NCBI GenBank assembly: GCA_032718475.1
Contig: JAUCBJ010002989.1
Location: forward strand, 1-64,000
From: Nemertoderma westbladi
Lineage: Eukaryota > Animalia > Xenacoelomorpha
Reading direction: 5' to 3'
Length of the DNA stretch: 64,000 bases
Numbering within the stretch: the first letter of the stretch is position 1; every line of letters starts with the position of its first letter. The translations under genes were made by a program, and so were the position numbers. Below, piece by piece: positions 4,382-46,052 of this stretch. The notes under the pieces are model-generated. The model had not been told where the DNA came from. It made no database searches and saw only the letters and a list, made by a program, of their open reading frames with translations.

Positions 4382-4531
4382 AATGGGGGGAGTTTCTTCA
4401 CGCTCGGGGTCGGAAGTTTACAGATTTTGGGGAAATTCGACGCGAAATTGAGGAAGAAACAGACCGACTTACCGGCTCTAATAAGGGAATATCCTCTGTC
4501 CCGATCAATCTCAGAGTCTTCTCTCCCCACG
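4382..4531 (+). CDS. DNM1: Dynamin exon (GTPase; vertebrate exon 3 equivalent)
   Basis: ttttag|...CAC G|gttagt; [50 protein letters not shown]; 150 bp. Confidence 0.95.
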
Positions 4532-7500: not shown

Positions 7501-10500
7501 TGTAAGTCACCGAGAATTAATTGGAAACTTAAGGTCCGATTATTTAGAGCAGTAGTAGTTCCAGTACTCCTCTATGGGAGTCCATGCTGGGCTCTAACTG
7601 CTGAGGACACCAAATCTCTGGATGGCACATTCACAAGAATGCTACGCCGGGTTCATTGTGTCAAGTACAATGCACACATCTCCAACCAGACACTATATAA
7701 CATTGCGGGTGTCTCATTGGTTCCCCCAAGCTTGACACTAGAACAAAATCGCCTCCGCTTTGCGGGACATTGCTTTCGCCATGAGGACCAGCCAGTGCAA
7801 AATCTTGTACTTTGGCAGCCTCATCGAGTGAATAAGCATGGTGGACAGCCCATGACTTTCTTGAGACGCATCTTAAAGGACACTGGCCTTAAAGATGCGG
7901 ATGATCTAGCAAATGTCATGGGTGATAGGGAGTTGTGGCGGTGCAATTTTGTTGACAAGCCGGCACAGCATTCTTAAAAATGCAGCTGCAATGCAGCATG
8001 CCGATCCTAGTCTAGTAGTAGTTCTACTTGGTATCCGCGTTTGCGAAATTTACATAATATTTATGTTTTTTTGTTTAGTGTTTTGTTTTTAGTTTAGTTT
8101 ACTATTAAATATATTATACCGGACTAGTTGTTATCGTTGTTACATGCTATTTTTTACTTTCAGTTCTAAATCTCACATTAATTGATCTTCCGGGTCTAAC
8201 AAAGATCGCCGTCGGTGATCAACCAGCAGATATAGAAGATCAGATCAGAGATATGGTGATCACTTACATATCTAAACCGAACTGTCTGATCTTGGCGGTG
8301 ACGCCGGCTAACTCTGATCTCGCTAACTCAGACGCCCTAAAGCTCGCCAAGGAAGTCGACCCTCAAGGTTAGTTATGTGGTCGGCTTCTTGAGGAAACTG
8401 GCCTAGAGATTGTTGACAAGCTGATAGTTTGTAAGCGGATACGTTATTGTTAGTACATAGTTAGTTAGTTAGAGTACTATACTGTTAGCTCGCTAAGTAT
8501 GTTTATAACCCTATGGGTTGTTTTCTAACAGGTCTGAGAACAATTGGTGTTGTAACTAAACTTGATCTAATGGACCAAGGAACCGATGCGAGGGATATAT
8601 TAGAGAACCGATTATACCCTCTTAGAAGAGGTAAGTTGCTCGAGTTAATATCCCTGCAAAATGTAAATTGAGATTAACTTATCTATTAACCGACATTTAT
8701 CTGTATTATGTATTATTGTATTATTTTATGTATTATCTCCACCAAAACCGGGATCAATTAATATTTTCGTCATATCATAATTAATTAATCTATTTATAGG
8801 ATATATTGGGGTTGTGAACAGAAGTCAGCGAGATATTGAAGGCAGAAAAGACATCAAAGTTGCCATGGCGAGTGAAAGGAAATTCTTTTTGTCCAACCAA
8901 TCCTACCGACACATGGCTGATAGAATGGGGACACCGTTCCTGCAGAAAACATTAAACCAGGTACGTTGGACACAGGTCCTTAACAAACCATGTAAGTTGG
9001 ACACAGGTCCTTAACAAACCAGGTAAGTTGGACATCGTTCCTTAACAAACCAGGTAAGTTGGACACCGTTCCTTAACAAACCAGGTAAGTTGGACACGGG
9101 TCCTTAACAAACCAGGTAAGTTGGACACGGGTCTTTAACAAACCAGGTAAGTTGGACACCGTTCCTTAACAAACCAGGTAAGTTGGACACGGGTCCTTAA
9201 CAAACCAGGTAAGTTGGACACAGTTCCTTAACAAACCAGGTAAGTTGGACACGGCTCCTTAACAAACCAGGTAAGTTGGACACGGGTCCTTAACAAACCA
9301 GGTAAGTTGGACACGGGTCCTTAACAAACCAGGTAAGTTTGACACGGGTCCTTAACAAACCAGGTAAGTTGGACACGGGTCCTTAACAAACCAGGTAAGT
9401 TGGACACCGTTCCTTAACAAACCAGGTAAGTTGGACACGGGTCCTTAACAAACCAGGTAAGTTGGACACAGTTCCTTAACAAACCAGGTAAGTTGGACAC
9501 GGCTCCTTAACAAACCAGGTAAGTTGGACACGGGTCCTTAACAAACCAGGTAAGTTAGACACAGTTCCTTAACAAACCAGGTAAGTTGGACACCGTTCCT
9601 TAACAAACCAGGTAAGTTGGACACGGGTCCTTAACAAACCAGGTAAGTTGGACACCGTTCCTTAACAAACCAGGTAAGTTGGACACGGGTCCTTAACAAA
9701 CCAGGTAAGTTAGACACAGTTCCTTAACAAACCAGGTAAGTTGGACACCGTTCCTTAACAAACCAGGTAAGTTGGACACAGTTCCTTAACAAACCAGGTA
9801 AGTTGGACACGGCTCCTTAACAAACCAGGTAAGTTGGACACGGGTCCTTAACAAACCAGGTAAGTTGGACACGGGTCCTTAACAAACCAGGTAAGTTTGA
9901 CACGGGTCCTTAACAAACCAGGTAAGTTGGACACGGGTCCTTAACAAACCAGGTAAGTTGGACACCGTTCCTTAACAAACCAGGTAAGTTGGACACGGGT
10001 CCTTAACAAACCAGGTAAGTTGGACACAGTTCCTTAACAAACCAGGTAAGTTGGACACGGCTCCTTAACAAACCAGGTAAGTTAGACACAGGTCCTTAAC
10101 AAACCAGCTAATTTGGACACCGTTCCTTAACAAACCAGGTAAGTTGGACACGGGTCCTTAACAAACCAGGTAAGTTGGACACGGGTCCTTAACAAACCAG
10201 GTAAGTTGGACACAGGTCCTTAACAAACCAGGTAAGTTGGACACCGTTCCTTAACAAACCAGGTAAGTTGGACACGGGTCCTTAACAAACCAGGTAAGTT
10301 GGACACAGTTCCTTAACAAACCAGGTAAGTTGGACACGGCTCCTTAACAAACCAGGTAAGTTGGACACGGGTCCTTAACAAACCAGGTAAGTTGGACACG
10401 GGTCCTTAACAAACCAGGTAAGTTTGACACGGGTCCTTAACAAACCAGGTAAGTTAGACACAGTTCCTAACAAACCAGGTAAGTTGGACACAGGTCCTTA

Positions 10501-13500
10501 ACAAACCAGGTAAGTTGGACACCGTTCCTTAACAAACCATGTAAGTTGGACACGGGTCTTTAACAAATCAGGTAAGTTGGACACAGTTCCTTAACAAACC
10601 AGGTAAGTTGGACACGGGTCCTTAACAAACCAGGTAAGTTGGACACGGGTCCTTAACAAACCAGGTAAGTTAGACACAGTTCCTTAACAAACCAGGTAAG
10701 TTGGACACCGTTCCTTAACAAACCAGGTAAGTTGGACACGGGTCCTTAACAAACCAGGTAAGTTGGACACAGGTCCTTAACAAACCAGGTAAGTTGGACA
10801 CAGGTCCTTAACAAACCAGGTAAGTTGGACACTGTTCCTTAACAAACCAGGTAAGTTGGACACGGGTCTTTAACAAATCAGGTAAGTTGGACACAGTTCC
10901 TTAACAAACCAGGTAAGTTGGACACGGGTCTTTAACAAACCAGGTAAGTTGGACACGGGTCCTTAACAAACCAGGTAAGTTAGACACAGTTCCTTAACAA
11001 ACCAGGTAAGTTGGACACCGTTCCTTAACAAACCAGGTAAGTTGGACACGGGTCCTTAACAAACCAGGTAAGTTAGACACAGTTCCTTAACAAACCAGGT
11101 AAGTTGGACACAGTTCCTTAACAAACCAGGTAAGTTGGACACGGGTCTTTAACAAACCAGGTAATTTGGACACCGTTCCTTAACAAACCAGAATTCCAGG
11201 TGACAAGATACATTGTTTAGGTACACTACAGTTGTTGGTAGGCATGCGGATCAAAGAGGTAAATATGTTTATATAGGTAAATAGGTTTAAGACCTGTAGT
11301 AACTAACCACTCCGTTTGTTGTTGTTGTTGTTAATTTCCCCATTTTGTTTTTGGTCACTTCTACAGTAGGGCGTTTTACTCACTTGGTAGAGCGTTGGAC
11401 TTTGAATTCGAAATACCGGGTTCAATCCCACATGTAGGTGGAATGTTTGTTTCGAATAAATATTTCGGGATTGTGGTTTAATTAAAACTTGTAAGCATAA
11501 TTGGGGTTGGTGGTAAGCCATTCAAGGATGATGTTGTTTATTAGACGCGGAGGTTTAGGTGATTTCGAGCTTGTTATCATTTAATATTAACTTAATGTTT
11601 CAGCAATTAACCAATCACATTCGCGAGACGTTGCCAGCGTTACGCAGTCGACTACAAGCGCAGTTGTTACAGTTGGATAAAGATTGCGCTGAATATAAGA
11701 ATTACTCTCCAGACGACCCCTCACGTAAAACCAAAGCAATGCTACAGTTAGTCTACGCTATAGTATACAATTAATTACAATATTTATTTAATTATAAACT
11801 TTATTATTTATTTACCAAGCGTTAACTGGTCTCTACCGGAGCAGTCCAGCAGTGAATTATGAATCATCTGTAAAATAATATCTAGATATAATTCCTAGAA
11901 CTCGCAGTGAATCAATTTATTACAAAAATAACACGAAAAGGACGTCGCGTCGGTACATCTAAACCACGTGTTACATCTAAACCACGTGTTACATCTAAAC
12001 CACGTGTTACATCTAAACCACGTGTTACACATCTAAACCACATGTTACATCAAAACCACGTGTTACATCTAAACCACGTGTTACATCTATACCACGTGTT
12101 ACATCTAAACCACGTGTTACACATCTAAACCACATGTTACATCTAAACCACGTGTAACATCTAAACCACGTGTTACATCTAAACCACGTGTTACATCTAA
12201 ACCACGTGTTAAATATAAACAACGTGTTACATCTAAACCACGTGTTACATCTAAACCACGTGTTACATCTAAACCACGTGTTACATCTAAACTAAACCAC
12301 GTGTTACATCTCAACCACGTGTTACATCTAAACCACGTGTTACATCTAAACCACGTGTTACATCTAAACCACGTGTTACATCTAAACCACGTGTTACATC
12401 TAAACCACGTGTTACATCTATACCACGTGTTACATCTAAACCACGTGTTACATCTAAACCACGTGTTACATCTAAACTAAACCACGTGTTACATCTCAAC
12501 CACGTGTTACATCTAAACCACGTGTTACATCTAAACCACGTGTTACATCTAAACCACGTGTTACATCTAAACCACGTGTTACATCTAAACCACGTGTTAC
12601 ATCTAAACAACGTGTTAAATATAAACAACGTGTTACATCTAAACCACGTGTTACATCTAAACCGCATGTTACATCTAAACCACGTGTTACATGTAAACCT
12701 CGTGTTACATCTAAACCACGTGTTACATCTATACCACGTACGTTACATAAGGTGGGTGGGGGGGGGGGGGGGGGGTCACTAATTAACTAGAAATTTCCAT
12801 CCCTTTATTTTAGACTGGATTTTATCGAAATTAATTGATATTTTGCACACTTACTTTTACTTGTATACAATAGGTGGGTAATAAATTTCAAAAAAAAAAT
12901 TCGAATTTTTAATTTTTCTTACCTAATTAACATAATTTAAGCAATTATTTTTTAAAATTAAGAGGATCTTAGATTGATGGTCTTCAAGTTTCCAAACATT
13001 CATCATTTGTGCAAAATGGGGTCTTGAAACGACTGTATTACCAGAATTTTGATAAATGCTCATTTTCAAAAATTATTTGAAAAAACTTTTTTGTGCCACA
13101 TTTTGGACACATTTTGCCATTTTTAGCTAAATTTAACACTTTGTGACCTATGTTTCAGCTACCACAAATAAAATGAAAAATTGTAATAGGAGGTGTTAAG
13201 CACCCAATCATCATTCATACCAAATTTCACGCGAATTCGTTATTTTTTGGAAAAGCCTTCATTGCAATTTGAAAGTTATATATTGCATTTGGCAGAAAAA
13301 GCATTGAAAGTTTATTCTTAGGGTAATTTAGTTAATTGAAATCTTAAAAATGTTTTGGGGTGTTTTCTGGGACAGTGATTTAATTTCTAATGTCAATTTT
13401 CTCATTTGACAGCGTCATGTCTGTCTTTCTGTCCGTCAAAATATGACCGACTGCTGAACAGACAATGTGGTGTGGATGATGTCGAAATCTGACATTGAAA

Positions 13501-16500
13501 ATGAAATCACCAACCATGAAAACCCCCCTAACAAAATGTTTAGCTAGTTGGTGTGCTTTCCTATTACTTTGACATACAGATCGCTGGACAGACAGAAAAA
13601 CATACAGACATAGTAGGTTTTGTTAAAAGTGAAACCTGACATCGTAAATGAAATTTTCACAGGCACGGAGTAAGGTTTTTACTCATAACTTTTGAACTAA
13701 ATCAGATCAGCACCAGTGGTAGTTTAGGCTCCATCACTGCAACATAGACCAACCGCCACCCGGCACCCCCATCTAATTGTTGAACATGATCCACATTGAA
13801 TCCATTGTGGAGGAATTATTTAATTTTAATTTTAAAATGCTAATCTCTCCCGGCCGATCATGATCCAATGGTATATACTTTTACTGCCTGTAGATTATTT
13901 TACATAATTAATTAACCGTTGTTTTTGTGCCTTCAGTTTAATGTTCCTTTATTCTACTTGAGCTACCGATACAATGCCATCTGAATCCGTCTATATTCGT
14001 ATATTGCATAGTACTCTGACACTGACAGCTCTGCAGACCATTATGTGGTCTTCCGCACCATGTATATGTATAACCGATTAATATGATATCGTGTTGGGGT
14101 GAAATCTATGGTGAAATTTTTCCAAAAATGTCAAAAAATATTTTCTTTGTTTTAACATTGTAAACGTCTTGATAATGTTAAAATTAGACATCTATTTAAT
14201 ATTACATCAAAAAACGTGAACCAATTATAGACACAATTTGTAAAGTACAATCTAATTATATTAACTGTACAGTAGCTTAATATTATATTGATTAACACAG
14301 TAAAACTTTATTCTTTATTAAATATGCTTCGAAAAGAACAAGGGTAAAACAATGAAAAAGTGTAGCACCAGAACTAACCTAAAAATACTAAAAAAATAAA
14401 AAATTTTAAAATCTAAAAAAAAAATTATTTTCTAAAAAATAAAATTTGGCGCCTAATTTGCATTATTAAATCTGCCACTTTTCAGTTTGAAAACTAGAAT
14501 TTTAAGAAAAATAGAAAATATTTATTTTTAGTGGAAGATGGGCGTTAGTATTTGGAATTTGTCACGTTCAAGCTTGTAAAAGAAAATCCACCCCACCTCT
14601 CGATTCGGACTACATTGTTGCTCATTAATGTTGTATTCACCCAAACATATTTTTGTACACCCACCCTAGTCTGCAGGAATTTATTTTTGTTTATCCAGAA
14701 TAGTGCAGGAATTTTCTCAGAAGTTTGGCAGTTCCATTGGCGGGGGAGCCTCCGATGAAGATATCAACGTAGACCAGCTCTGTGGGGGGGCTAAAATCAA
14801 TAGAATATTCGTCGAAAGACTACCTTATGAGATCTTGAAGGTACCCGACAGTCCCCACTCAAGCCGTGTGTAATTCTTGTAGATTTGATCTAGGCAGTCA
14901 TTCTTATAACCTCGATCGCGTTTTACTATACACCCTCGTTTCTAACTAATTCATCGCTTTGCTCCTTCATAATTGTAAATTATCTTTCATATGATAATTT
15001 AATAACTTATTTTAAATTAATTATTGAATTGTTTGAGCTTCATTTCTAAATAATCACTATATTTTCTTATAAATAGTTAAATATCTATCTAAAATGATCT
15101 TTAATTATAGTTGTGATTGAATAAATGGAATATAATATTAATAACTTTGGTGATTATTTAGTACTTTGTCGCCGGGACTTGTGAACGAATGTATTGCCTG
15201 ATCACAATAATATCTTTAAGGTTTCTCTTTAAGAATATCCACGTCACTAAATAATATTCCAATTAGGCTCATCTCTTAACAGCTGTATCTTAATGAGTAT
15301 TAATTTGTCCTGATATTTCTAACGTGAGGTTATTAATGACTTGGCCTTTACTTGTTACTGTCAACGTGAGGTTATTAATGACTTGACCTTTACTTGTTAC
15401 TACCACTTAAGTTCGCATTGCTTATGCTAAACTGTTTTTGTTTACGTGTGTTTTCTCTGAAAGGTGGATGGATTTGTATCTCCTAATATGTCCGCGATTG
15501 CAATATTTATCAATTTTGGTTGTTTTGGCTCTCTATTTACTGGTTTGTGTATTATTATTACCCACTCAGTTAAATTGGCAATACCAAAAGTCCAAAACCA
15601 CCATAATATAAAGTCAATCACCTTGTTCCGAATATGAATCGAGAGATTTAGATTCCAATTAAATCTCTGATACTCTTTTTTCGCATTGTTAACCTAAACC
15701 AACGGCACCATAGAGATACAAGATCGGATAAATAGAGAGACTTCTACGTAATCAATGTAAGAGAACAATTACCCAAAGGGGCGGTAGAATCCAAAAACGG
15801 GCGAAATATTTATTTTGTGTAATCAAGAATAAGTATTTATATCAGAGATTCAAGACTGCCTGTTTAAAACAACATTATTCTCAGTTTGTCGATAATGACA
15901 TTTTCATAAATAAATTACCTACAACTTTTTTATCCTTCTCACAATTCTAGTCACCTAGTAGACTAGAACCGAACTGTTTAGCCGTTATATGGCTTCAATT
16001 ATTGTGAGTATTTGTTTTTTATTACGTGCCCATTGTGATGTTCTAGAACAGATTTAGTAAGTGTAACCCCCCTTTGTACATCTTAAACTTCTCTTATCTC
16101 AAGAACAATTCAGTCAAATTTGTTGATATTTGGCAAGCGTGTAATATATATAATAATTATTAAGTAATTTTAAACAGGACTAGGATGATCCATATATATA
16201 GCAATATAATTTATACAATCTATGGATATTAAACCATAAACAATAAGATATAATAACTATTTACATACTGGTGATCCGAATCAATCCTTGATTGATTGTG
16301 TTACGCTAACGAACATATAGTGAGATAGTGCAAATACAGTTACGAGAGTTCCAGAACATATAGTGAGATAGTGCAAATACGGTTCGAGTTCCAGAACATG
16401 TAAAATTTGTTAAAATATTTAAATTATAAATAAATATAGAGAAGATAAGTACCGGTAGTTCATATAAGAGAGACTAAGTAATAGATATCTAAATACAATT

Positions 16501-19500
16501 AATTAAATAATTTAAATAAAAAAAATATGCGTTATATGAGTGCCTGTAGGTGGAAAGCCAGGTGTATATAACGCCAGATCTTATGGTGGTACGCGTTCGA
16601 GAGGAACTGTGCGGCTACACGCCTTCGTTGGTGGGAGAGGTACCGCAGGTTAATCTGTGCGTTTTGGGGTGAATCAATGGCAGCGAGGATTCTCGAGGTG
16701 GAGCTGTACTTTGACAACCCACACCATAGTTTTAAGTAGAAGCCGCGTACTTTATGAACGTGAGGTTGTGTGTTCCATTCTGCTCTCGCTCTGTGTCTAT
16801 CAGTAAAAATTTCACACCCAAAAACGGTTGCTGGGAAGACGACATAGGCCCACTTTTTGATTGCACTGTCAAGTGAGATTGACTTTAGATTTACTTTGCT
16901 TGCAATCCGCAAACTAGAGGAAACTCCGCGACTCTTTAGGTGGTCGAAGTGAGCACCAAAGGTGTTTTTCGTCGACAATACTACCCCTAAATAGGAGAAC
17001 GAGTTAACGAAGTCAACTTAATCACCCTTGTATGTCAGTTTATCGTTGCGAGAAAGGCGCCCTCCCCTTCTAAACTTAATAGCCTTTGTCTTCTTCATAT
17101 TTACGGTTAGTAAATTTTGGTCGCAGTAAATGGACAGCTTATCAAGCGTAGCTTGTACATCTTATTTTTATTATTGTACGTATTTTTGTAATAAATAAAA
17201 CAAGTTGAGATGTTTCAATGTAAAACATCGATTAACAATTTACACTGTTCAATGTAAACCACGATATTAATTAAATACAACAATTATAGTATTATTCTAA
17301 CAGATTTTTATATTTCAAACTATAATGTTAGCCTTATGGAGAATCGTTATGAGGCTGAGTAAACATTCAGCCGTATAAGCATACAGCCTCCATAGTATTA
17401 ATGTTGGCACAAAGATTTCCAAATAAAACAATAATTCGATGAGAGCATAGTACAATACATTGTGTAGCCAACACACTGTTTAACTAACAGTCATTTACCT
17501 TGCACGCCAATTAATTAACATTGGGAAGAGTTATTCAGCTGAGACTGTAATAGCCAGCTAAACCAGTTAATGTTTGCTTACTGTCTGGGTTGTAGAGTAG
17601 AGTGATAATAAAACTTGGCAGAGAAAGTACTTCTTTGTTAGTTGCCCTTCCTATTGAATGCATTACCAGGCCATCTCATATACATTTTTCATGAGTGCCA
17701 GCTGGTATTTTTATCATTGTTTCTATGGCAATTTTCGTGTTTTGGGGCTATTTTTCGAAATAAAACAAGTTGAGATGTTTCAATTTAATCCGCGATTTCA
17801 CAAGTACCCATAGAAATTTATTTTCATGGTCTATTAAAATTTCATCAAAATCGTTAAAGCCGTATTTGCTCTAGATCAGTAGTCAATAGATTTTTTTTCT
17901 TACAGTAATAAAGTCTCTAAAGACTTAACTAATTATTGATGTAAGTTTTTAGAGCCAATGATATTACTTCAGATAATCAGAATATTTATGTGGTTTTTCC
18001 GGCCGTAATTTCGTTTTTTACATGTCATCCCGTTAGGATTCGATGATGAAATTATAATCACCATCTTTCGTATGAGAATCTTGTGATTATGCTTATTAGT
18101 TACACCTGAGAATCCTAGTTACACCTGAGAATCCCACAATTTGTATTTCAGGTAATACGTTTTCGTATTTATCACAATGCACACATCTCCAACCAGACAC
18201 TATATAACATTGGAAGTGTCTCATTGGTTCCCCCAAGCTTGACACTAGAACATAATCGCCCCCGCTTTGCAGGACATTGCTTTCGCCGTGAGGGCCAGCC
18301 AGTGCATAATCTTGTGCTTTGGCAGCCTCATGGAGTGAATAAGCAGGGTGGACAGCCCATGACTTTCTTGAGACGCCTCTTAAAGGACATTGGCCTTGAA
18401 GATGCGGATGATCTAGCAAATTTTATGGGTGATGGGAGTTGTGGCGGCGCAATTTTGTCGACAAGCCGGCGCAGCATGCCGATCCTAGTAGTAGTAGTAG
18501 TATTTATCACAATGTTGTTAATTCTCGGCACACTGCATTATAAGTGTTAATCAGTTGATATAATAAGGCTACCAATTAAAGTCATCCCAAAATTGATAAA
18601 AATTTGTCAAAAAAAATTATATTACACCAAATTAAATAATAGGACCCCAAAAAAATTATTCAACACCAAATAAAATAAAATCACCCCAAATCAAATTATT
18701 CAAACACCAACACAAATTTTTCAACTCCAAAAACAATTATTCAACACCAAAACCAATTATTCAATACCAAATTAAATAAATGCTCCCCAAAACCAATTAT
18801 TCGCACCAAAATAAATGACAAAACCCCCAAAATAAATATATTTTCCCCCAAATCATTACAGATTTTCCCACAACAAATACATTTTCGCCCAAAATAATTA
18901 CATTTTCCCCTAAAACAAATACTTTTTCGCCCAAAACAAATACATTTTCGCCCAAAATAAATACATTTTCCCCCAAAACAAAAAATACATTTTCGCCCAA
19001 AACAAATACATTTTGCCCAAAATAAATACATAATCCCCCAAAATAAATACTACTGCAGCAATAGGCCTAGCACTTCCTGGCAGGCCGACAAAGGCGAAAA
19101 AGGCATTTATAACTCAGTGACTCCGAAATATACAGTTTAGGCCTATAAACAGACTCAGTCACAAACTCTCAGTTTGGTATAAATGTAGGTCCCCTATAAT
19201 ATGATTGAACATTTTATTTGATTAAGTGGAAATAAATTTTGCAAAAATAAATTTTCCATAAAATATTTGGTGCTGGAATAATTTTTTTTGGTTGACAAGT
19301 GATTATTTTTGGGGGATGAATATCCCCACTGAATGAATAATTGTTTTTGGGGAATCAATAATTATTTTTGGGGGAAGAATAATTGTTTTTGGGGGATGAA
19401 TAATTGTTTTTGGGGGATGTATAATTGTTTTGGGGGGATGAATAATTGTTTTTGGGGGATGGATAATTGTTTTTGGGGGATGAATAATTGTTTTTGGGGG

Positions 19501-22500
19501 ATGAATAATTGTTTTTGGGGGATGAATTAATAATTGTTTTTGGGGGATGGATAATTGTTTTTGGGGGATGGATAATTGTTTTTGGGGGATGAATAATTGT
19601 TTTTGGGGGATGAATAATTGTTTTTGGGGGATGAATAATTGTTTTTGGGGGATGAATAATTATTTTTGGGGAAATAATAATTGTTTTTGGGGGATGAATA
19701 ATTATTTTTGGGGGATGAATAATTGTTTTTGGGGGGATGGATAATTGTTTTTGGGGGATGAATAATTGTTTTTGGGGGATGAATAATTGTTTTTGGGGGA
19801 TGGATAATTGTTTTTGGGGGATGAATAATTGTTTTTGGGGGATGAATAATTGTTTTTGGGGGATGAATAATTGTTTTTGGGGGATGAATAATTGTTTTTG
19901 GGGGAATAATAATTGTTTTTGGGGGATGAATAATTATTTTTGGGGGATGAATAATTGTTTTTGGGGGATGAATAATTATTTTTGGGGAAATAATAATTAT
20001 TTTTGGGGAAATAATAATTGTTTTTGGGGGATGAATAATTATTTTTGGGGGATGAATAATTGTTTTTGGGGGATGAATAATTATTTTTGGGGGATGAATA
20101 ATTGTTTTTGGGGGATGAATAATTATTTTTGGGGGATGAATAATTGTTTTTGGGGGATGAATAATTGTTTTTGGGGGATGAATAATTGTTTTTGGGGGAT
20201 GAATAATTGTTTTTGGGGGAATAATAATTGTTTTTGGGGGATGAATAATTATTTTTGGGGGATGAATAATTGTTTTTGGGGGATGAATAATTATTTTTGG
20301 GGAAATAATAATTATTTTTGGGGAAATAATAATTGTTTTTGGGGGATGAATAATTATTTTTGGGGGATGAATAATTGTTTTTGGGGGATGAATAATTATT
20401 TTTGGGGGATGAATAATTGTTTTTGGGGGATGAATAATTATTTTTGGGGGATGAATAATTGTTTTTGGGGGATGAATAATTGTTTTTGGGGGATGAATAA
20501 TTGTTTTTGGGGGATGAATAATTGTTTTTGGGGGAATAATAATTGTTTTTGGGGGATGAATAATTATTTTTGGGGGATGAATAATTGTTTTTGGGGGATG
20601 AATAATTGTTTTTGGGGGATGAATAATTATTTTTGGGGGATGAATAATTGTTTTTGGGGGATGAATAATTATTTTTGGGGGATGAATAATTGTTTTTGGG
20701 GGATGAATAATTGTTTTTGGGGGATGAATAATTGTTTTTGGGGGATGAATAATTGTTTTTGGGGGAATAATAATTGTTTTTGGGGGATGAATAATTATTT
20801 TTGGGGGATGAATAATTGTTTTTGGGGGATGAATAATTGTTTTTGGGGGATGAATAATTATTTTTGGGGGATGAATAATTGTTTTTGGGGGATGAATAAT
20901 TATTTTTGGGGGATGAATAATTGTTTTTGGGGGATGAATAATTGTTTTTGGGGGATGAATAATTGTTTTTGGGGGATGAATAATTGTTTTTGGGGGATGA
21001 ATAATTGTTTTTGGGGGAATAATAATTGTTTTTGGGGGATGAATAATTATTTTTGGGGGATGAATAATTGTTTTTGGGGGATGAATAATTATTTTTGGGG
21101 GATGAATAATTGTTTTTGGGGGATGAATAATTGTTTTTGGGGGATGAATAATTATTTTTGGGGGATGAATAATTGTTTTTGGGGGATGAATAATTGTTTT
21201 TGGGGGATGAATAATTATTTTTGGGGGATGAATAATTGTTTTTGGGGGATGAATAATTATTTTTGGGGGATGAATAATTGTTTTTGGGGGATGAATAATT
21301 GTTTTTGGGGGATGAATAATTGTTTTTGGGGGATGAATAATTGTTTTTGGGGAAATAATAATTGTTTTTGGGGGATGAATAATTATTTTTGGGGGATGAA
21401 TAATTGTTTTTGGGGGATGAATAATTATTTTTGGGGGATGAATAATTGTTTTTGGGGGATGAATAATTGTTTTTGGGGGATGAATAATTGTTTTTGGGGG
21501 AATAATAATTGTTTTTGGGGGATGAATAATTATTTTTGGGGGATGAATAATTGTTTTTGGGGGATGAATAATTATTTTTGGGGAAATAATAATTGTTTTT
21601 GGGGGATGAATAATTATTTTTGGGGGATGAATAATTGTTTTTGGGGGATGAATAATTATTTTTGGGGAAATAATAATTATTTTTGGGGAAATAATAATTG
21701 TTTTTGGGGGATGAATAATTGTTTTTGGGGGATGAATAATTGTTTTTGGGGGATGAATAATTGTTTTTGGGGGATGAATAATTGTTTTTGGGGGATGAAT
21801 AATTGTTTTTGGGGATGAATAATTGTTTTTGGGGGATGAATAATTGTTTTTGGGGGATGAATAATTGTTTTTGGGGGAATAATAATTGTTTTTGGGGGAT
21901 GAATAATTATTTTTGGGGGATGAATAATTGTTTTTGGGGGATGAATAATTGTTTTTGGGGGATGAATAATTATTTTTGGGGGATGAATAATTGTTTTTGG
22001 GGGATGAATAATTATTTTTGGGGGATGAATAATTGTTTTTGGGGGATGAATAATTGTTTTTGGGGGATGAATAATTGTTTTTGGGGGATGAATAATTGTT
22101 TTTGGGGGATGAATAATTGTTTTTGGGGGAATAATAATTGTTTTTGGGGGATGAATAATTATTTTTGGGGGATGAATAATTGTTTTTGGGGGATGAATAA
22201 TTATTTTTGGGGGATGAATAATTGTTTTTGGGGGATGAATAATTGTTTTTGGGGGATGAATAATTATTTTTGGGGGATGAATAATTGTTTTTGGGGGATG
22301 AATAATTGTTTTTGGGGGATGAATAATTATTTTTGGGGGATGAATAATTGTTTTTGGGGGATGAATAATTATTTTTGGGGGATGAATAATTGTTTTTGGG
22401 GGATGAATAATTGTTTTTGGGGGATGAATAATTGTTTTTGGGGGATGAATAATTGTTTTTGGGGGATGAATAATTATTTTTGGGGGATGAATAATTGTTT

Positions 22501-25500
22501 TTGGGGGATGAATAATTATTTTTGGGGGATGAATAATTGTTTTTGGGGGATGAATAATTGTTTTTGGGGGATGAATAATTGTTTTTGGGGGAATAATAAT
22601 TGTTTTTGGGGGATGAATAATTATTTTTGGGGGATGAATAATTGTTTTTGGGGGATGAATAATTATTTTTGGGGAAATAATAATTGTTTTTGGGGGATGA
22701 ATAATTATTTTTGGGGGATGAATAATTGTTTTTGGGGGATGAATAATTATTTTTGGGGAAATAATAATTATTTTTGGGGAAATAATAATTGTTTTTGGGG
22801 GATGAATAATTGTTTTTGGGGGATGAATAATTGTTTTTGGGGGATGAATAATTGTTTTTGGGGGATGAATAATTGTTTTTGGGGGATGAATAATTGTTTT
22901 TGGGGATGAATAATTGTTTTTGGTGAGAGGGATATTCAAAATTGGGGGATGCGAATTGGTGCTACAAAAAAAATATATTTGGTGCAAAATATTTTATTTT
23001 GGTGTTAAATCATCTCATTTGGGGTGGCATTCAATTAGTGGCGATATTATAATAGTAATTTATAGAAATGATTCATTGTAAATATACATTACATACTATT
23101 TCCTAAATAAGTACACATTCTGTGATTTCCACAAGTGAAATGCAAAATTGATGTTTCAATTTAATTTCAATACTTATATCTGTATTATCTATCTATATTA
23201 TATTTTGATACCATCTATCAAAATATATCCTGCTGTTGGTCTTTGTGTGCTGATGATCTAATATCAGGTCTTAGTCCTGTTTAAATTACTTAATCATTTA
23301 TACAATCTATGGATATTAAAACATATAATAAAACACGAAGTGGGGACTTCGCGCAGCACGAAGTTGGCAGAGCCTTAGCGAATTGACACTGTTAGGGGGT
23401 AGGTCAATTTATGCAAATAGTCACGTTGGCCCTCTAGCGGCAGACTGGAGAACTGCAGATGGATTCGCCTCCTTTGAAAGTCACAGCTAATGGTCTAATA
23501 CATATCTGCCAAGTTTCAGCTTAAACGGATTAAAAGCAAAGAAATGGGAGGGCATTTAATGTTTAGACATGTGGCCCTCTAGCGGGAGACCATTGCACTG
23601 ATGGTGTCTGAAAGTCTCTCAAAAATCTCAACTTTTGCTCATATTGATACCTACAAATTTTCAACTTGGCAGCTTTAAATCCGACAAAGTTATTAGCATG
23701 TCAAAATCGTAACGACGACGACGACGACGACGACAACGACGACGACGACGACGACAACGACGACGACAACTATTTGCATAAATTGACCCACCCCCTAACA
23801 GTGTCAATTCGCTAAGGCTCCGCCAACTTCGTGGCTCGCCCCACAATAAGATTCGTTTGCAGTACAGGTCATAATTGCAACTGAATTGGGATACAGATTA
23901 AATCCATCCGTAAGCGCAGACTGTATTCAATAGCAACCGTAAGGTAGCTTACCCACCTATAGCAAATCAATCGGAATGATGCGGGAGCCTCCGTGGTGTA
24001 GTGGTCAGCATACCTGAACGTTTATCGGGAGTCACGGGTTCGTTCCCTGCTGGTGGCGAATTCATTTTTTCCGCTACATTTGCTTATAAGGTTGGATCAT
24101 CCTACGTCCTGTTTAAATTACTTTAATAATTTATACAATCTATGGATGTTAAAACATATAAAACAATATTATTATTACTGATTCAATGATGATATCAAAA
24201 CACCATCTTTCGCATGAAATATATTGATTCTATCCATTATCTGAGAATCTGTAAGGTTAATGTTAAATTTAGTTTTTCCACGTCGAGCTAAACAATGAAC
24301 AATAACAGCTTCTCAGGCCTTTTCTTTTGTTGTTTTACTATCATATCTACCCATTCCCACCTTTACAGACCATTCAGCTGCTATTATTTTACTACACCCC
24401 TAACCATACCACATGAAATCAACCAGATCAATTAACCAAGATTTTTAGAATTCCTTCAAACTTTCACATCTTCCACACATCCATGAAAGAACAAACCTCA
24501 CCAAATCTCAGCCTATTTGACCCAGGCATTTTAATGATAAATATTAGATTGCACTTAATATATGCAGCACTTGACGTGGTAAGATTATGACCAATGTACC
24601 AGGTGTTCCATAGTGATTGCCCCCCCCCCCCCTGGCCAGCCAAAACTGCCAGACATGCACCTTAGTGCAATATATCATTCGAAAGATAATTTAAATCTGA
24701 GCTTGCATTCAAAAATTTAGGGTCCAATACAAAAGTATAACAATTTTATTTGCTATTCTTTAAACCAATCTTATTTTTCAAATTTTTTGATTTAATCACA
24801 ATTAAAAAAATATAATTTATCCAGCGTTAGTCATCAGCTTTGCAGCCATGTTATCCCTAAAGTGCATGTCTGGCAGTTTTGGCTGGCCAGGGGAGGAGGG
24901 GGGTGGGGAATCATTATGGAACACCCGGTACATAACCTAACTTACTTAATTAATAATGAAATTTGAAACAGAGTCAGTTTCACATCCCTCCTCCTTGCTG
25001 GGGGAGCCAGAATTTTTATTTTCGCTTTCATTCTTTAGCTACAAGTGTTTGAAAAAGGTGTCTCCGGCGATATTTCACAGGTCACACTGCAATCATTCTA
25101 CAACCTTATTGTGATTTGATGGTACCAATAGAAAGCTGACCATGCAAGGATTCCAAATTTGAATTTGGTTGGGAAATAGCTGAGATATGGGCATTCGAAA
25201 GTGGCATGTATTTGCTTCCCCCTGTAGGCCATTTATTCTATGTAATAAATGTATCATAATTCTAGAACATTTTGTTTATTCCATACGTAGCTGGGCAACA
25301 ATGCAATACCTCTTTAATTATACTACTACGTAGCTTTGGATTAGATAGGAAAGATTATGACCTATGTACATAACCTAACTTAACATATCGGTTGTTAATA
25401 CTACTTTCACGTTGAATAAACGATATCTTCCCACTTTCGTGGGGCCTTAGCGCAAAAAGAATTAATCTTATCGCACGGGTACCACAATTTCAACCGTTGC

Positions 25501-28500
25501 TTAGCTACGCTCTAGCGAGAGACTGGTGAACTGTTGACAGCCCCCACTTAAATTATATTTCAGACTATTTTCAGAATCACTATATGTGTACCAATACCGA
25601 GTTGGGATTAATTTCATCAAAGACTGACTGAGTTATTAACCTTCAAGCATTTGGCGACAGACATGCCGATGTAAAGAACGACCGACAGACCGGCCGACCA
25701 ACCGACTGACAGCGTCCTCGCCACTCGCCCCTCGCTCACCCGGCGCCCCACCATATATTGTTATGCTAAATTCCCCGATTCAATGATGATATAAAAACAC
25801 CATCTTTCGCATTAAATCTATTACTGTAATTATTTTACTTTCACCCTAACCAATCACAATTTACAGTTTATTAATTCGCTATCGACCAAACATATCCCAC
25901 TTTTACAGACTCAGTTTTATTTTACTGTTATTCTAGCAAATCCCATCTTCCCAGGCTGGTTGGTTCAGCTGTTGTTAATTTATTATTTCCCTTTAACCAA
26001 TCCAACTTTTACAATCTTTTAATGTGATATTATTTTCCTATTAACATAATAGTCAATCACACATTTACAACCTTTTTCAGCTATTCAATCACTCACTAGC
26101 AGGCTCATCGACTGATGTTTTACTATTCCTAACCAATGCAGGCTTGTCAGCGGTTATTGTTTCAGTATCCCATCTGTGTATTGCAGGAACTGTCAGTTGT
26201 TATTTTACTCTTATCATAAAACCCAACTTCGCAGTCTCATTCAGCTTTTATGATTTTAATATACTTGTAACCAATCACACATTCGCAGACTCGTCCAGCT
26301 GTTTAGCACCGACTTCGAGAATCTGATTCTCGGGAGTAGTGACGACATTGGCACGGTAGAGCTTTCAGGAGGCGCGCGAATAAATCGTTTATTTCATGAA
26401 CGTTTCCCTTACGAAGTGAAGAAGGTAGTTTTAGAGTAGTGTGTAACTGACCTTCTGTTCTTGTTATTTTGGTATGTTTCCTGGCAGTAGTTAACTTTTT
26501 GTATTTAATTTTTGCAAGTTTTTGTATTACCTGTTGCATGCTCAGTAATATTCCTCCCCTCCGCAAGCACATTACATAAACAACTATGAACAAAAGTAAT
26601 TTGAGTTTAGGGCCCTGCTACTGAAAGCATTTCACGAAATAGTAATAGTTCTGGAATGTAGAGCGCACCCTGGTCACTGAAGGTATTATGAGATATTTAA
26701 TAATACCCTATACTATACGAAACGGAAAATGTTTACCCGTCAACTTCTACAGTATTAATTATTTTTGTTGGTCGGCATTATCCGGGACGGAATTGTCCTA
26801 TCTTCAAATAATGGATACTCATTTACAAACATTTCGTATTTTTTTTCCAATCTCTTACTACTTATCCTTTTAATGTGTTGTATTTCTGCCGTTCCCTGAT
26901 GGGTGATTAATAATATTATACTTACCATATTCCGTGTGTTTGTTATTTATTTCAGATCTGTGGATGTTGTAACATCCAGACAATTACAGTGTCAACCATG
27001 TCTTCTTTATGCAAACTTGCAATTGAGCAATTAAGGTGTAAATAGTTACGATCAGCTCTAACCCCTAGTTATCGCTTTTATCGAATAGTGTAATAGGTTC
27101 AGTGATCAATCAGTTGCCAATGACTTACTTGGGGGTGATATTTGGTGACAATAACAGTGAGTTGTTTGGTTACAGAATGGTACAACGTCTTAGGTCCGAC
27201 TTTGACACACAACTCACCGGCAGTGGCGATGTTGTCGATACAGATATTTTATGCTCAGGGGCTCGTATAAACAAACTATTTATAGAACGACTGCCCTACG
27301 AAATGACAAAGGTGAACTTAATTTCGGAAAACATTGTTTTATTTACAAAAAACTTATTCAGAGAAAAATTTAGTTAGTGTGTTAATAATGTTAAGAACAG
27401 TGCTAATAATAACTGTGGCAAGACTACAAGAGCGCGCGCAAGTTTCGAGAAATGGCCGTGGTGTTCGTGGCTCAAATGTGGTGTCCGTGACACAGCTGTG
27501 GTGTCCGTGACACAGCTGTGGTGTTCGTGACACAGCTGTGGTGTCCGTGACACAGCTGTGGTGTTCGTGACACAGCTGTGGTGTCCGTGACACAGCTGTG
27601 GTGTCCGTGACACAGCTGTGGTGTTCGTGACACAGCTGTGGTGTCCGTGACACAGCCGTGGTGTCCGTGATACAGCTGTGGTGTCCGTGACACAGCGGTG
27701 GTGTTCGTGACACAGCCGTGGTGTTCGTGACACAGCCGTGGTGTCCGTGATACAGCTGTGGTGTCCGTGACACAGCCGTGGTGTCCGTGATACAGCTGTG
27801 GTGTCCGTGACACAGCTGTGGTGTTCGTGACACAGCCGTGGTGTCCGTGATACAGCTGTGGTGTCCGTGACACATCCGTGGTGTCCGTGACACAGTTGTG
27901 GTGTCCGTGACACAGCTGTGGTGTCCGTGATACTAACAGCTGTGGGGTCCGTGACACAGCTGTGGGGTCCGTGACACAGCTGTGGTGTCCGTGACACAGC
28001 TGTGGTGTCCGTGGCAAAGCTGTGGGGTCCGTGACACAGCTGTGGTGTCAGTTACACAGTCGAAGTGTTAGTGACAAGGCGGGAGCGTTTCACGACGTTG
28101 CGTTCGTGGTAAAAGTCATGCCATTTTTACCAACAACTTTGTATGTTTGATGGTGTTCGTTTGCACAGTTCTTACCATAAAGCCAATTAATTGTTGTTAC
28201 TATTGAAATTCACTCCTCCATAGCCAAATTAGCTTTCCCAGCTAGCTTTGGGGGTGTAATTTATTTATTTACAATAACTTTTTCCTGAATATGTTTACAA
28301 ACTTAAGTTTGATGCGACTGATCACACTTATGAAATCATCAGGTGAAGGGACTGGACTGTCTTTAGTTGTATCATTATCAATATACATTGTTTTACTTTT
28401 CTTACAGCCAATTATTTACATATCCTACATTGAGAAATTTGTTCATAAAATGATGCCACATCATAACAATTATGAAAATGTTATCAATTCTAACCTATTA

Positions 28501-31500
28501 TAATAAGTTATAATGTTAGCGTAACATTACCGTAACGTATTTGTGTTACAATCTTAATCACATAATAATAGTGAGGCCTTAATTAAATGCGTTCTAATAA
28601 AATAACCATCGGCAGTTTAATGTTTAAGGTAAAATAATCTCGATGTTTTTTGTTTAGATTATACAGCGTAAATTATTTTACTTTTAATATATTCCTGCCG
28701 CTTTTTTATTTTCTGATATATATCCCTCACACAATTAATTTCCATATTTTTGTTCTCGCTTTCCATTTTCCTGCATGGCATGATTCTTTATTGTTTGTTC
28801 TTTTTTCTTGACTTGGTCTTTCACCTTAGACTTGCATTTGACATTAATATCATTATATCATATCATAATAAATCATTATTCGAAATTGTTTTTGCTGATT
28901 GATAAACTTCATTTTTCTTTATAAAGTAGTGTTGTTAAAAGTAAGTGCCGTTAATATTACATAATCAATACGTACATTACATTTTGTAATATAATTCCTA
29001 TCCTATTAAGAAAAACAACTTACATATTATTTATTACGGATTTTGATTAATGCATCTGCGAAAATTAGGAAATTGCGAAATTATGTTAACAGTTTTTTTG
29101 TTGTTGGAGTAACGTTAAGCGGAGATGATACTAAATTATAACTAATTAGTTTGGAGAAGAGCAGAGGTAAAATATCCTATAAACCTTCACTTATGTTTCA
29201 TCATTTCTCTCACATAAAATTGATTATATTTTACACATTATGCGATCATTATAAGTATTTCATTAATTATGTTGCATAATGTCTATGTGCTTTTCCTTTC
29301 TCTCATATATGGTTTATTGTTATTGTAAATCGTTTCCAGTTGGACTTCGGGGAGCAAGATGTCCGTAAGGAGATCATCTACGCTATCCGCAACATCCACG
29401 GTGTCCGTACCGGACTGTTTACTCCGGATATGGCCTTTGAGTTGGTGGTCAAACGGAAAATCTCCAAACTGAAAGAGCCCGCTATTAAGTGCGTGGATCT
29501 TGTAATGGAAGAACTCAATAACGTAATCCGTAAGTGCGGCGAGAGATTACAGCGGTATCCACGACTACGGGAAGAAACGGAACGCATTGTGACCGGACAC
29601 ATTCGCGAGAAGGAAGTCCGATCCAAGGATCACATAAATCTAATGATAGACGTTGAACTCGCATATATGAATACTAATCACGAAGACTTTGTTGGTTTTG
29701 CAAAGTAAGTTGACAATATTAAAAAAATGTATCAAATAAGACAATAAATATACATATTTGTATACAAATGAACATCATGCACATTATTTTGTTTTAGTGC
29801 CAGGCATCGCACATTATTTTGTTTTAGTGCCAGGCATCGCACATTATTTTGTTTTAGTGCCAGGCATCGCATATTATTTTGTTTTAGTACCAGGCATCGC
29901 ATATTATTTTGTTTTAGTGCCAGGCATCGCATATTATTTTGTTTTAGTGCCAGGCATCGCATATTATTTTGTTTTAGTGCCAGGCATCGCATATTATTTT
30001 GTTTTAGTGCCAGGCATCGCATATTATTTTGTTTTAGTGCCAGACATCGCACATTATTTTGTTTTAGTACCAGGCATCGCACATTATTTTGTTTTAGTGC
30101 CAGGCATCGCATATTATTTTGTTTTAGTGCCAGGCATCGCATATTATTTTGTTTTAGTGCCAGGCATCGCATATTATTTTGTTTTAGTGCCAGACATCGC
30201 ACATTATTTTGTTTTAGTACCAGGCATCGCATATTATTTTGTTTTAGTGCCAGGCATCGCATATTATTTTGTTTTAGTGCCAGACATCGCACATTATTTT
30301 GTTTTAGTACCAGACATCGCATATTATTTTGTTTTAGTGCCAGACATCGCATATTATTTTGTTTTAGTGCCAGGCATCACATATTATTTTGTTTTAGTGC
30401 CAGGCATCGCATATTATTTTGTTTTAGTGCCAGACATCGCACATTATTTTGTTTTAGTACCAGACATCGCATATTATTTTGTTTTAGTGCCAGACATCGC
30501 ATATTATTTTGTTTTAGTGCCAGGCATCACATATTATTTTGTTTTAGTGCCAGGCATCGCATATTATTTTGTTTTAGTGCCAGACATCGCATATTATTTT
30601 GTTTTAGTACCAGACATCGCATATTATTTTGTTTTAGTGCCAGACATCGCATATTATTTTGTTTTAGTGCCAGGCATCACATATTATTTTGTTTTAGTGC
30701 CAGGCATCGCATATTATTTTGTTTTAGTGCCAGACATCGCACATTATTTTGTTTTAGTACCAGACATCGCATATTATTTTGTTTTAGTGCCAGACATCGC
30801 ATATTATTTTGTTTTAGTGCCAGGCATCACATATTATTTTGTTTTAGTGCCAGGCATCGCATATTATTTTGTTTTAGTGCCAGACATCGCACATTATTTT
30901 GTTTTAGTACCAGGCATCGCATATTATTTTGTTTTAGTGCCAGGTATCGCATATTATTTTGTTTTAGTACCAGGCATCGCATATTATTTTGTTTTAGTGC
31001 CAGGTATCGCATATTATTTTGTTTTAGTGCCAGGTATCGCATATTATTTTGTTTTAGTACCAGGCATCGCATATTATTTTGTTTTAGTGCCAGGTATCGC
31101 ATATTATTTTGTTTTAGTGCCAGGCATCACATATTATTTTGTTTTAGTGCCAGGCATCGCATATTATTTTGTTTTAGTGCCAGACATCGCACATTATTTT
31201 GTTTTAGTACCAGGCATCGCATATTATTTTGTTTTAGTGCCAGGCATCGCATATTATTTTGTTTTAGTGCCAGGCATCGCATATTATTTTGTTTTAGTGC
31301 CAGGCATCGCATATTATTTTGTTTTAGTGCCAGGCATCGCACATTATTTTGTTTTAGTGCCAGGCATCGCATATTATTTTGTTTTAGTGCCAGACATCGC
31401 ATATTATTTTGTTTTAGTGCCAGCGCAAGTGTATCAGATAAAGTGAAATCAGCGAGTTCCACCAAGAACGTTAGCAACCAACTTATTCGTAAGGGATGGA

Positions 31501-45968: not shown

Positions 45969-46052
45969 GGAGAGGCTAGTTGACTTTTAGTCCAGATTGG
46001 CGGTGGCATTCCCCCTTTCAGCATCCGGTTGCAAACATCCAATAATGGTCTG
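45969..46052 (-). mobile_element. RTE family B RT fragment forming the edge of the satellite
   Basis: ggagaggctagttgacttttagtccagattggcggtggcattccccctttcagcatccggttgcaaacatccaataatggtc aligns to 2722-2805 (MLKGEKPPPIWNKSQL vs MLKGGMPPPIWTKSQL). Confidence 0.9.

Follow-up and report, generated by a model that had tools for sequence, protein, structure and literature searches.

Three diverged copies of exon 8 in a Nemertoderma westbladi dynamin gene: a predicted mutually exclusive cluster

Can a single dynamin gene supply several versions of the same stalk segment by splicing? The question is raised by 64 000 nt of Nemertoderma westbladi DNA (GCA_032718475.1, contig JAUCBJ010002989.1, positions 1 to 64 000 of the forward strand; this whole stretch is called the window below). 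It carries a dynamin gene in which one stalk exon, the equivalent of exon 8 of human DNM1, occurs three times, as the diverged copies A, B and C. From the sequence we consider it probable that these copies form a mutually exclusive cluster and that all three are used, one at a time. Differences among the three resulting dynamins would be confined to the end of stalk helix 1, loop L1N and the helix that carries E368 and R369. We expect the near-canonical copy B to serve as the default and the other two copies to yield minority or tissue-specific forms.

Three exon-8 copies in one dynamin gene

Using four full-length dynamins as tblastn queries, we located one classical dynamin gene in the window (4382-43624, forward strand), with all parts colinear. 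The tblastn matches and the spliced open reading frame follow the order G domain, middle/stalk, PH, GED and proline-rich tail, and the 365-nt stalk exon downstream of the copies matched dynamin-1/3 with E values of 1e-53 to 1e-48, compared with 1e-22 for DRP1. Apart from A, B and C, each dynamin exon was present once in the window; the first coding exons, about 80 codons, were not found there by tblastn.

We scanned the window with a hidden Markov model (HMM) of exon 8, built from 33 distinct homologous segments out of 118 proteins, and obtained exactly three copies (B 75.1, C 52.7 and A 46.4 bits; next match 1.1). Each of them aligns to residues 332/333-376 of human DNM1, which are human exon 8. 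Exon C matched dynamin-1 at E 3e-8, and Pfam reported Dynamin_M for B and, below the cut-off, for A, with nothing for C. All three copies are preceded by CAG and followed by GT, run from phase 2 to phase 0 and contain no stops. A preliminary description of this DNA had given their coordinates, lengths (142/136/136 nt), splice ends, phase and open frames, all of which were confirmed on re-reading. With 47, 45 and 45 codons for the same protein segment, the copies have the form of the adjacent homologous exons that characterize mutually exclusive clusters.

The preliminary description had also claimed that only the inclusion of one copy out of three yields dynamin. Scripted splicing bore this out. 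When A, B or C alone was joined to the 13 other mapped exons, the frame remained open to the stop at 43622 (778, 776 and 776 aa, respectively, counted from exon 3). All five other combinations (none, AB, AC, BC and ABC) ran into an early stop, located 1213-1600 nt before the last junction; in double inclusions the stop came no more than about five codons into the second copy and 1464 nt before that junction. Upstream of C, use of the AGs ending at 27088 and 27157 would extend the exon in frame by 29 or 6 codons, both stop-free.

Divergence, selection and rival explanations

Protein identity between the copies is 44-53% in pairwise comparison. Codon identity is 64-71% at second positions and 31-36% at third positions; the proportion of synonymous differences (pS) is 0.81-0.86 and thus saturated, and that of non-synonymous differences (pN) is 0.31-0.41. 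Saturated synonymous sites together with a conserved protein indicate that purifying selection acted on all three copies over most of their past. A codon model in which the three branches had the same dS rejected omega=1 for A, B and C (p 1e-7, 2e-10 and 1e-9). With free dS, the hypothesis that both A and C evolved neutrally was rejected (p 6e-5); for A and C taken as a pair, omega was ~0.03 (p 5e-5 against 1; dS at bound). The dN/dS comparison called for in the preliminary description, made here between the copies, yields omega below 1 under a clock, the single-branch tests of A and C with free dS not being significant. We also simulated 5000 neutral, stop-free derivatives of B each with the number of changes seen in A (21) and in C (23). 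None in either set was as dynamin-like as the real exon, and 11 (A) and 14 (C) retained equally many invariant residues. Under neutrality, the chance that AG, GT and frame survive is 0.05 at 0.5 changes per site, counting substitutions only. The selection tests speak for long past constraint, not for present use.

Several observations weigh against use of all three copies today. With free dS, omega=1 was not rejected for A alone (p 0.99) or for C alone (p 0.12); such a neutral solution needs a short branch, which no young pair supports because all three pairs are saturated. An exon that has evolved without constraint over 0.1 changes per site has a 46% chance of being intact (substitutions only), so that recent inactivation is possible. 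Residues 332-376 belong to the most constrained parts of animal dynamins, with 27 of 45 positions at least 90% invariant in 86 segments; A alters 10 of these 27, C alters 11 and B alters 6, and relaxed selection fits this as well. The substitution S357C, found in A and C, may be close to silent, judging by its apparent equivalent C380S in fungal DnmA (see below). No RNA docking site in the intron scans beat its control, and no relative with an A-like or C-like exon was found in the collections searched.

Part of this evidence is what one would expect if B were now constitutive and A and/or C, once alternative, had recently fallen silent or to noise level and were beginning to decay. B is indeed the most canonical copy by profile score (75 bits, against 53 and 46) and by the number of residues unseen in a comparison set of 67 distinct 45-residue segments from 268 proteins (7 in B against 14 in A and 14 in C, the assignments at 348-350 of A hinging on the placement of its two-codon insertion). 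A and C alter residues that all 67 segments of this set have in common, neutrality is not rejected for either copy alone without a clock, and intact splice sites and frame, as calculated above, can outlast silencing. We nevertheless regard such a decay as unlikely, since saturation leaves no young pair and both copies are still intact, since the changes in A and C are far more conservative than neutral change would produce (0 of 5000 in each simulation), and since the acceptor of A is T-rich, well formed and better than that of B. Still less probable is that A and C serve mainly as 'poison' exons, whose inclusion together with B would lead to an early stop and hence to nonsense-mediated decay or a short G-domain product. 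The B-C intron (751 nt) is long enough for joint inclusion, and the position of the early stops fits, but C is always the second copy and would be read out of frame in a double inclusion, so that a poison role cannot explain its conserved protein in the dynamin frame.

An artefact of assembly or haplotypes, or an origin of the copies from separate paralogous genes or retrocopies, we consider hardly credible. Long tandem arrays, which are hard to assemble, abound in the window, and a comparable false duplication exists in a public gene model (P0004), where the copies are identical. A, B and C differ far beyond what haplotypes would, their flanks share no detectable homology, each has exact boundaries with no neighbouring exon fused to it, and no other exon is duplicated. 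We therefore retain alternative use of all three copies as the preferred explanation. The preliminary description had proposed a three-way switch that might tune assembly; its mutually exclusive geometry, as given by the frame, and long purifying selection stand, and the tuning of assembly is a prediction, to which we turn below.

Table 1. Features of the dynamin gene, in window positions
Feature	Position	Strand	Evidence
G-domain exons, four	4382-4531, 8164-8367, 8532-8630, 8800-8960	+	tblastn, splicing
Constitutive upstream exon, human exon 7 equivalent	11604-11746	+	donor ACA|GTTAGT, phase 2
Alternative exon A, 142 nt, 47 codons, two-codon insertion in loop L1N (predicted use)	14699-14840	+	HMM, frame
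3' splice-site region of B, T-poor, last unit of decayed ~55-nt array	26265-26286	+	
Alternative exon B, 136 nt, closest to canonical exon 8 (predicted use)	26289-26424	+	HMM, frame
3' splice-site region of C, candidate partner of the B acceptor in a predicted duplex	27156-27176	+	
Alternative exon C, 136 nt (predicted use)	27176-27311	+	HMM, frame
Constitutive downstream exon, 365 nt, corresponding to human DNM1 377-497	29340-29704	+	tblastn, splicing
PH, GED and proline-rich exons	31418-31592, 37679-37788, 38312-38447, 40955-41095, 41261-41514, 41888-42049, 43528-stop at 43622	+	

Predicted effects on assembly and possible means of exclusivity

F340, G346, L356, G359, A360, a basic residue at 361, I362, N363, F366, E368, R369, P371, E373 and K376 are common to A, B and C. 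The alignment to DNM1 and the papers cited here agree with the preliminary description in placing R361, E368/R369 and L1N within the segment. G346 and R361 lie in L1N and are part of interface 3, where mutations block assembly (PMC12550548), and in soluble tetramers L1N contacts the PH domain (PMC6743466). E368 and R369 are tabulated in exon 8 of DNM2 (PMC5039012), where their mutants show a gain of assembly; E368K and R369W cause higher basal GTPase activity and resistance to disassembly (PMC5039012, PMC6277281). Variants of G359 and E373 are located at interface 3 (PMC5574673).

A and C have in common 354D, S357C, H367V/I, F370L and the loss of E355. C alone has G358S and R364K; A alone has D339K and the two-codon insertion, which is in frame and lies at a site where arthropod dynamins carry insertions too. 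Among the residues unseen in the comparison set are D339K, S357C, H367V and F370L in A, and E355I, S357C, G358S, H367I and F370L in C. F370L and an A-like loop also occur in a long-branch dynamin among mite-like sequences (locus L040, 1608-1745), which is unrelated, and such changes can thus arise independently.

Two other proteins suggest what some of these changes may do. In DRP1, G362D turns filaments into rings (10.1101/172809). Residues 2-40 of B match DRP1 337-375 over 39 residues, and G358 would correspond to DRP1 G362 if the match is ungapped. In fungal DnmA, L1N is constrained by a simulated bridge between E378 and R384, and the substitution C380S had little effect (PMC10746283). By their spacing, DnmA E378, R384 and C380 would be E355, R361 and S357, in which case the bridge would be kept in B only.

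We propose that all three isoforms would fold and polymerise, as each retains the assembly core (G346, G359, the basic residue at 361, E368, R369 and E373). The surface affected in A and C, made up of the loss of E355, S357C, H367V/I and F370L, with G358S added in C and D339K and the two-residue loop insertion in A, is predicted to shift the threshold that separates PH-latched tetramers from membrane polymers, or to alter polymer geometry. Given one-at-a-time use of all three, we lean slightly towards a measurable difference in assembly among the isoforms. The segment 332-376 holds the human disease sites G359, E368, R369 and E373. Three versions long under selection would be ready-made, viable substitutions on an otherwise identical protein, and they could show which L1N residues set the assembly threshold, autoinhibition and helix geometry.

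How might exclusivity be enforced? Steric interference between neighbouring splice sites (a branch point within ~50 nt of the upstream donor) is not expected judging by intron lengths, the A-B intron being 11448 nt and the B-C intron 751 nt long. The B-C intron contains 35 AG dinucleotides, and the AG-free zone of C spans only 12 nt. Steric exclusion is thus unlikely, as the preliminary description had argued. All introns of the gene are GT-AG, and there is no sign of spliceosome incompatibility. Docking/selector pairs, for which the preliminary description had advised a search of the introns, were sought, and none passed the controls: the best upstream docking candidate (14010-14039) beat 12 of 12 shuffles and was equalled by 24% of 3000 random real triplets, and the downstream model was equalled by 4 of 17 shuffles. 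Rfam gave no matches in 11500-29800. Weak donors were considered as a sign of alternative use and rejected: G at position +5 is found in none of the three copies and in 12 of 12 constitutive donors, but in only 15 of 36 exon-8 donors elsewhere. GTTAGT is the commonest donor of the gene (5 of 12 constitutive introns), which to our knowledge is unusual among animals.

The acceptor of B is the least T-rich of the gene's 16 (0.25). Between the acceptor regions of B and C, a duplex of 19 pairs that covers the AG of C is predicted (-19.4 kcal/mol). It was the best of 120 acceptor pairs (next -11.2) and ranked second of 1299 windows; among 1000 shuffles, 5 and 6 equalled it. The decayed array units upstream of B pair less well with the C acceptor (-9.6 to -16.9). 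The duplex was noticed post hoc, the C acceptor has stronger partners, and the pairing is absent from the minimum-free-energy and centroid folds of 26240-27200 (z 0.75). A regulatory role of this duplex is therefore doubtful, and we list it as a candidate lead only.

As steric exclusion is unlikely and the docking scans failed, splice-site competition combined with removal of out-of-frame products remains. The copies would compete as alternative 3' splice sites, and transcripts with none or more than one of them would meet an early stop and be subject to nonsense-mediated decay. The reading frame, as deduced from the spliced sequence, would be the main enforcer of exclusivity that the evidence supports. 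A wider proposal is that one gene swaps the loop governing polymer geometry and the PH latch among three natural versions. Version C would have serine in place of the glycine that may correspond to DRP1 G362, the site of the filament-to-ring change, and the animal, with only one classical dynamin gene, would make functionally distinct fission machines by splicing. Pairing of the B and C acceptors may steer the choice by masking both copies and leaving A. We offer this tentatively, as possible rather than likely.

Other duplicated dynamin exons, origin of the copies and intronic repeats

The vertebrate exons 10a and 10b are 139 nt long; like the lengths of the copies described here, this is one nucleotide more than a multiple of three. 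In vertebrate DNM1 and DNM2, 10a/10b are likewise tandem homologous stalk exons of the self-assembly region, of which one is used at a time, and the DNM1 isoforms are expressed and switch during development (PMC2916854, PMC4465641). The trio is not of this vertebrate type: the duplicated exon encodes residues 332-376, whereas 10a/10b encode residues 399-444, further downstream, as the preliminary description had stated. The vertebrate system has two copies, whereas the present one has three, for which one-at-a-time use is predicted, and 14 of 46 residues vary in 10a/10b compared with 21-25 of 45 here, near-invariant positions included. In the present gene, residues 399-444 are encoded within one exon of 365 nt, which spans what are four exons in human (9-12), and there is no free-standing exon 10. 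This fusion makes a 10a/10b switch impossible in this gene; that the exon-8 trio takes the place of such a switch is a guess.

Mutual exclusion in DNM1 reportedly involves competing RNA structure (cited in PMC3923563), whereas none is established in this gene. Dscam, 14-3-3 and Mhc, named in the same source, also have more than two alternatives and long introns; docking-selector pairing controls these clusters, whereas in the scans of the present gene no common docking site exceeded its controls. Homologous mutually exclusive exons in general share phase, have lengths not divisible by three and mostly make conservative changes in folded domains, and such events recur independently within the same gene families (PMC5740500, PMC9741552). 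Exon lengths of this kind occur in 60% of the human mutually exclusive clusters (PMC5740500). The standard applied in that study is junction reads for each copy that bridge the others; the present cluster is predicted from genomic sequence. The main text of PMC9741552 makes no mention of dynamin (0 matches).

We surveyed dynamin loci in the best 80 of 248 confirmed metagenome stretches, and none of the 80 had a second exon-8 copy; the single extra match overlapped the known exon. A free-standing exon 8 with both neighbours visible was present in 14 of the 80, several of them near-duplicates, so that fewer species are represented. Among 90 named gene models from 17 sets, no exon-8 variants were found, in a screen insensitive enough to miss 10a/10b in both rodent sets. 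Of 118 proteins, one (P0004) had two exon-8 matches, which we rejected as identical copies of a large block, that is, an assembly-type duplication. A profile of A+C gave 64 candidates among longer proteins, none of them significant, and no candidate among short ones, both results being weak negatives. With a profile of A+B+C against cluster representatives, the best 150 of 474 matches were all canonical-type segments, the nearest among them being identical to A at 24 and to C at 26 of 45 positions. Over the downstream exon, the closest proteins among the best 120 of 5683 were ~70% identical. In a quick tree of 44 rows, which held no named sponge, ctenophore, placozoan, acoel or tunicate, the protein fell outside arthropods and had a long branch (0.72); the tree did not place it any further. 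Our literature search, outside which lay most subscription journals and supplementary gene lists, found no paper on alternative dynamin exon-8 copies.

Other dynamin exons are duplicated in other invertebrates, as diverged tandem or alternative copies of one exon in the same family, none of them at exon 8. Exons are numbered after their human counterparts. In a copepod-like locus (L077; 8567-9119, 10279-12445), diverged copies are present of exon 4 (two) and of exon 10 (three). Exon 10 is present twice in L020 (6415-7194), L023, L013 and Lepeophtheirus P0020 (diverged second copy), exons 11-12 twice in L029 (6641-7400) and exon 19 twice in L023; the L023 duplicates of exons 10 and 19 lie at 8348-9113 and 11650-12285. 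Among the gene models P0069, P0271-P0284, P0052, P0048 and P0093 and their sets, exon 12 alternates in Branchiostoma (amphioxus), with differences at exon 5 in two sets, and exon 19 alternates in hemichordates (Ptychodera, Glandiceps) and a nemertean (Lineus). The exon-10 copies in the invertebrate-type loci L020 and L023 indicate that the exon-10 pair is not confined to vertebrates, contrary to the statement in PMC2916854 that it is absent from invertebrates. The suggestion that the cluster might be unique therefore holds for exon 8 in the screened loci and models, and not for dynamin as a whole, of which exons 4, 10, 11-12, 12 and 19 are duplicated elsewhere. These duplicates mark dynamin as a repeated evolver of alternative exons in invertebrates. 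Homologous mutually exclusive exons are well known as a kind; exon 8 is a new position, within the surveyed sample, on a gene that repeatedly duplicates its exons.

How the three copies are related is less clear. A and C had been thought sisters on account of LC.GA and ERLPYE, which they do share. The protein tree of the exon joined A and C (93% bootstrap) as two long branches, whereas a tree of codon positions 1 and 2 joined B and C (74%). In the approximately unbiased (AU) test, ((B,C),A) was not rejected (p 0.11 and 0.15) and only ((A,B),C) was (p 0.03 in both). For A and C to be sisters in the present order A-B-C, a block of two exons would have to have been duplicated and one B lost; no remnant of a second B copy was found in the HMM scan of the window. 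The cluster may have arisen through duplication of local genomic sequence. Large tandem arrays with real splice sites in their units fill the introns of this gene and are a plausible source of exon duplication.

Tandem arrays with splice-site units occupy 8954-11191, 29779-31423 and 38452-40892 of the window. The true donor at 8960, itself the weaker GTACGT, is followed by 67 copies of CAG|GTAAGT, and 55 copies of a TTTTAG acceptor end at the true acceptor at 31418. With dozens of candidate splice sites in such arrays, the spliceosome must choose one. A decayed array of ~55-nt units lies at 25830-26303; its unit holds the B acceptor and the first bases of B, and a second partial copy is located 1.5 kb upstream (24348-24412). 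In-frame AGs upstream of B in this array reach stops. The start of exon 7 (11607-11653) resembles the acceptor and first bases of B (26268-26315) in 38 of 50 columns (0 of 2000 shuffles); this was the sole score of at least 30 among 1779 exon-to-window comparisons and may be due to chance.

Intron 3 harbours a non-long-terminal-repeat (non-LTR) retrotransposon (6343-7975) with a 544-codon reverse-transcriptase frame (Pfam RVT_1), and 3' fragments of it with 91-93% identity are found at 18174-18477 and 42727-43017. Elements with long terminal inverted repeats that resemble miniature inverted-repeat transposable elements lie in the introns before A and B (23357-23833, 24594-24933 and 13354-13531). 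The last 18 kb of the window (46017-64000) consist of a 37-nt satellite in at least 487 copies.

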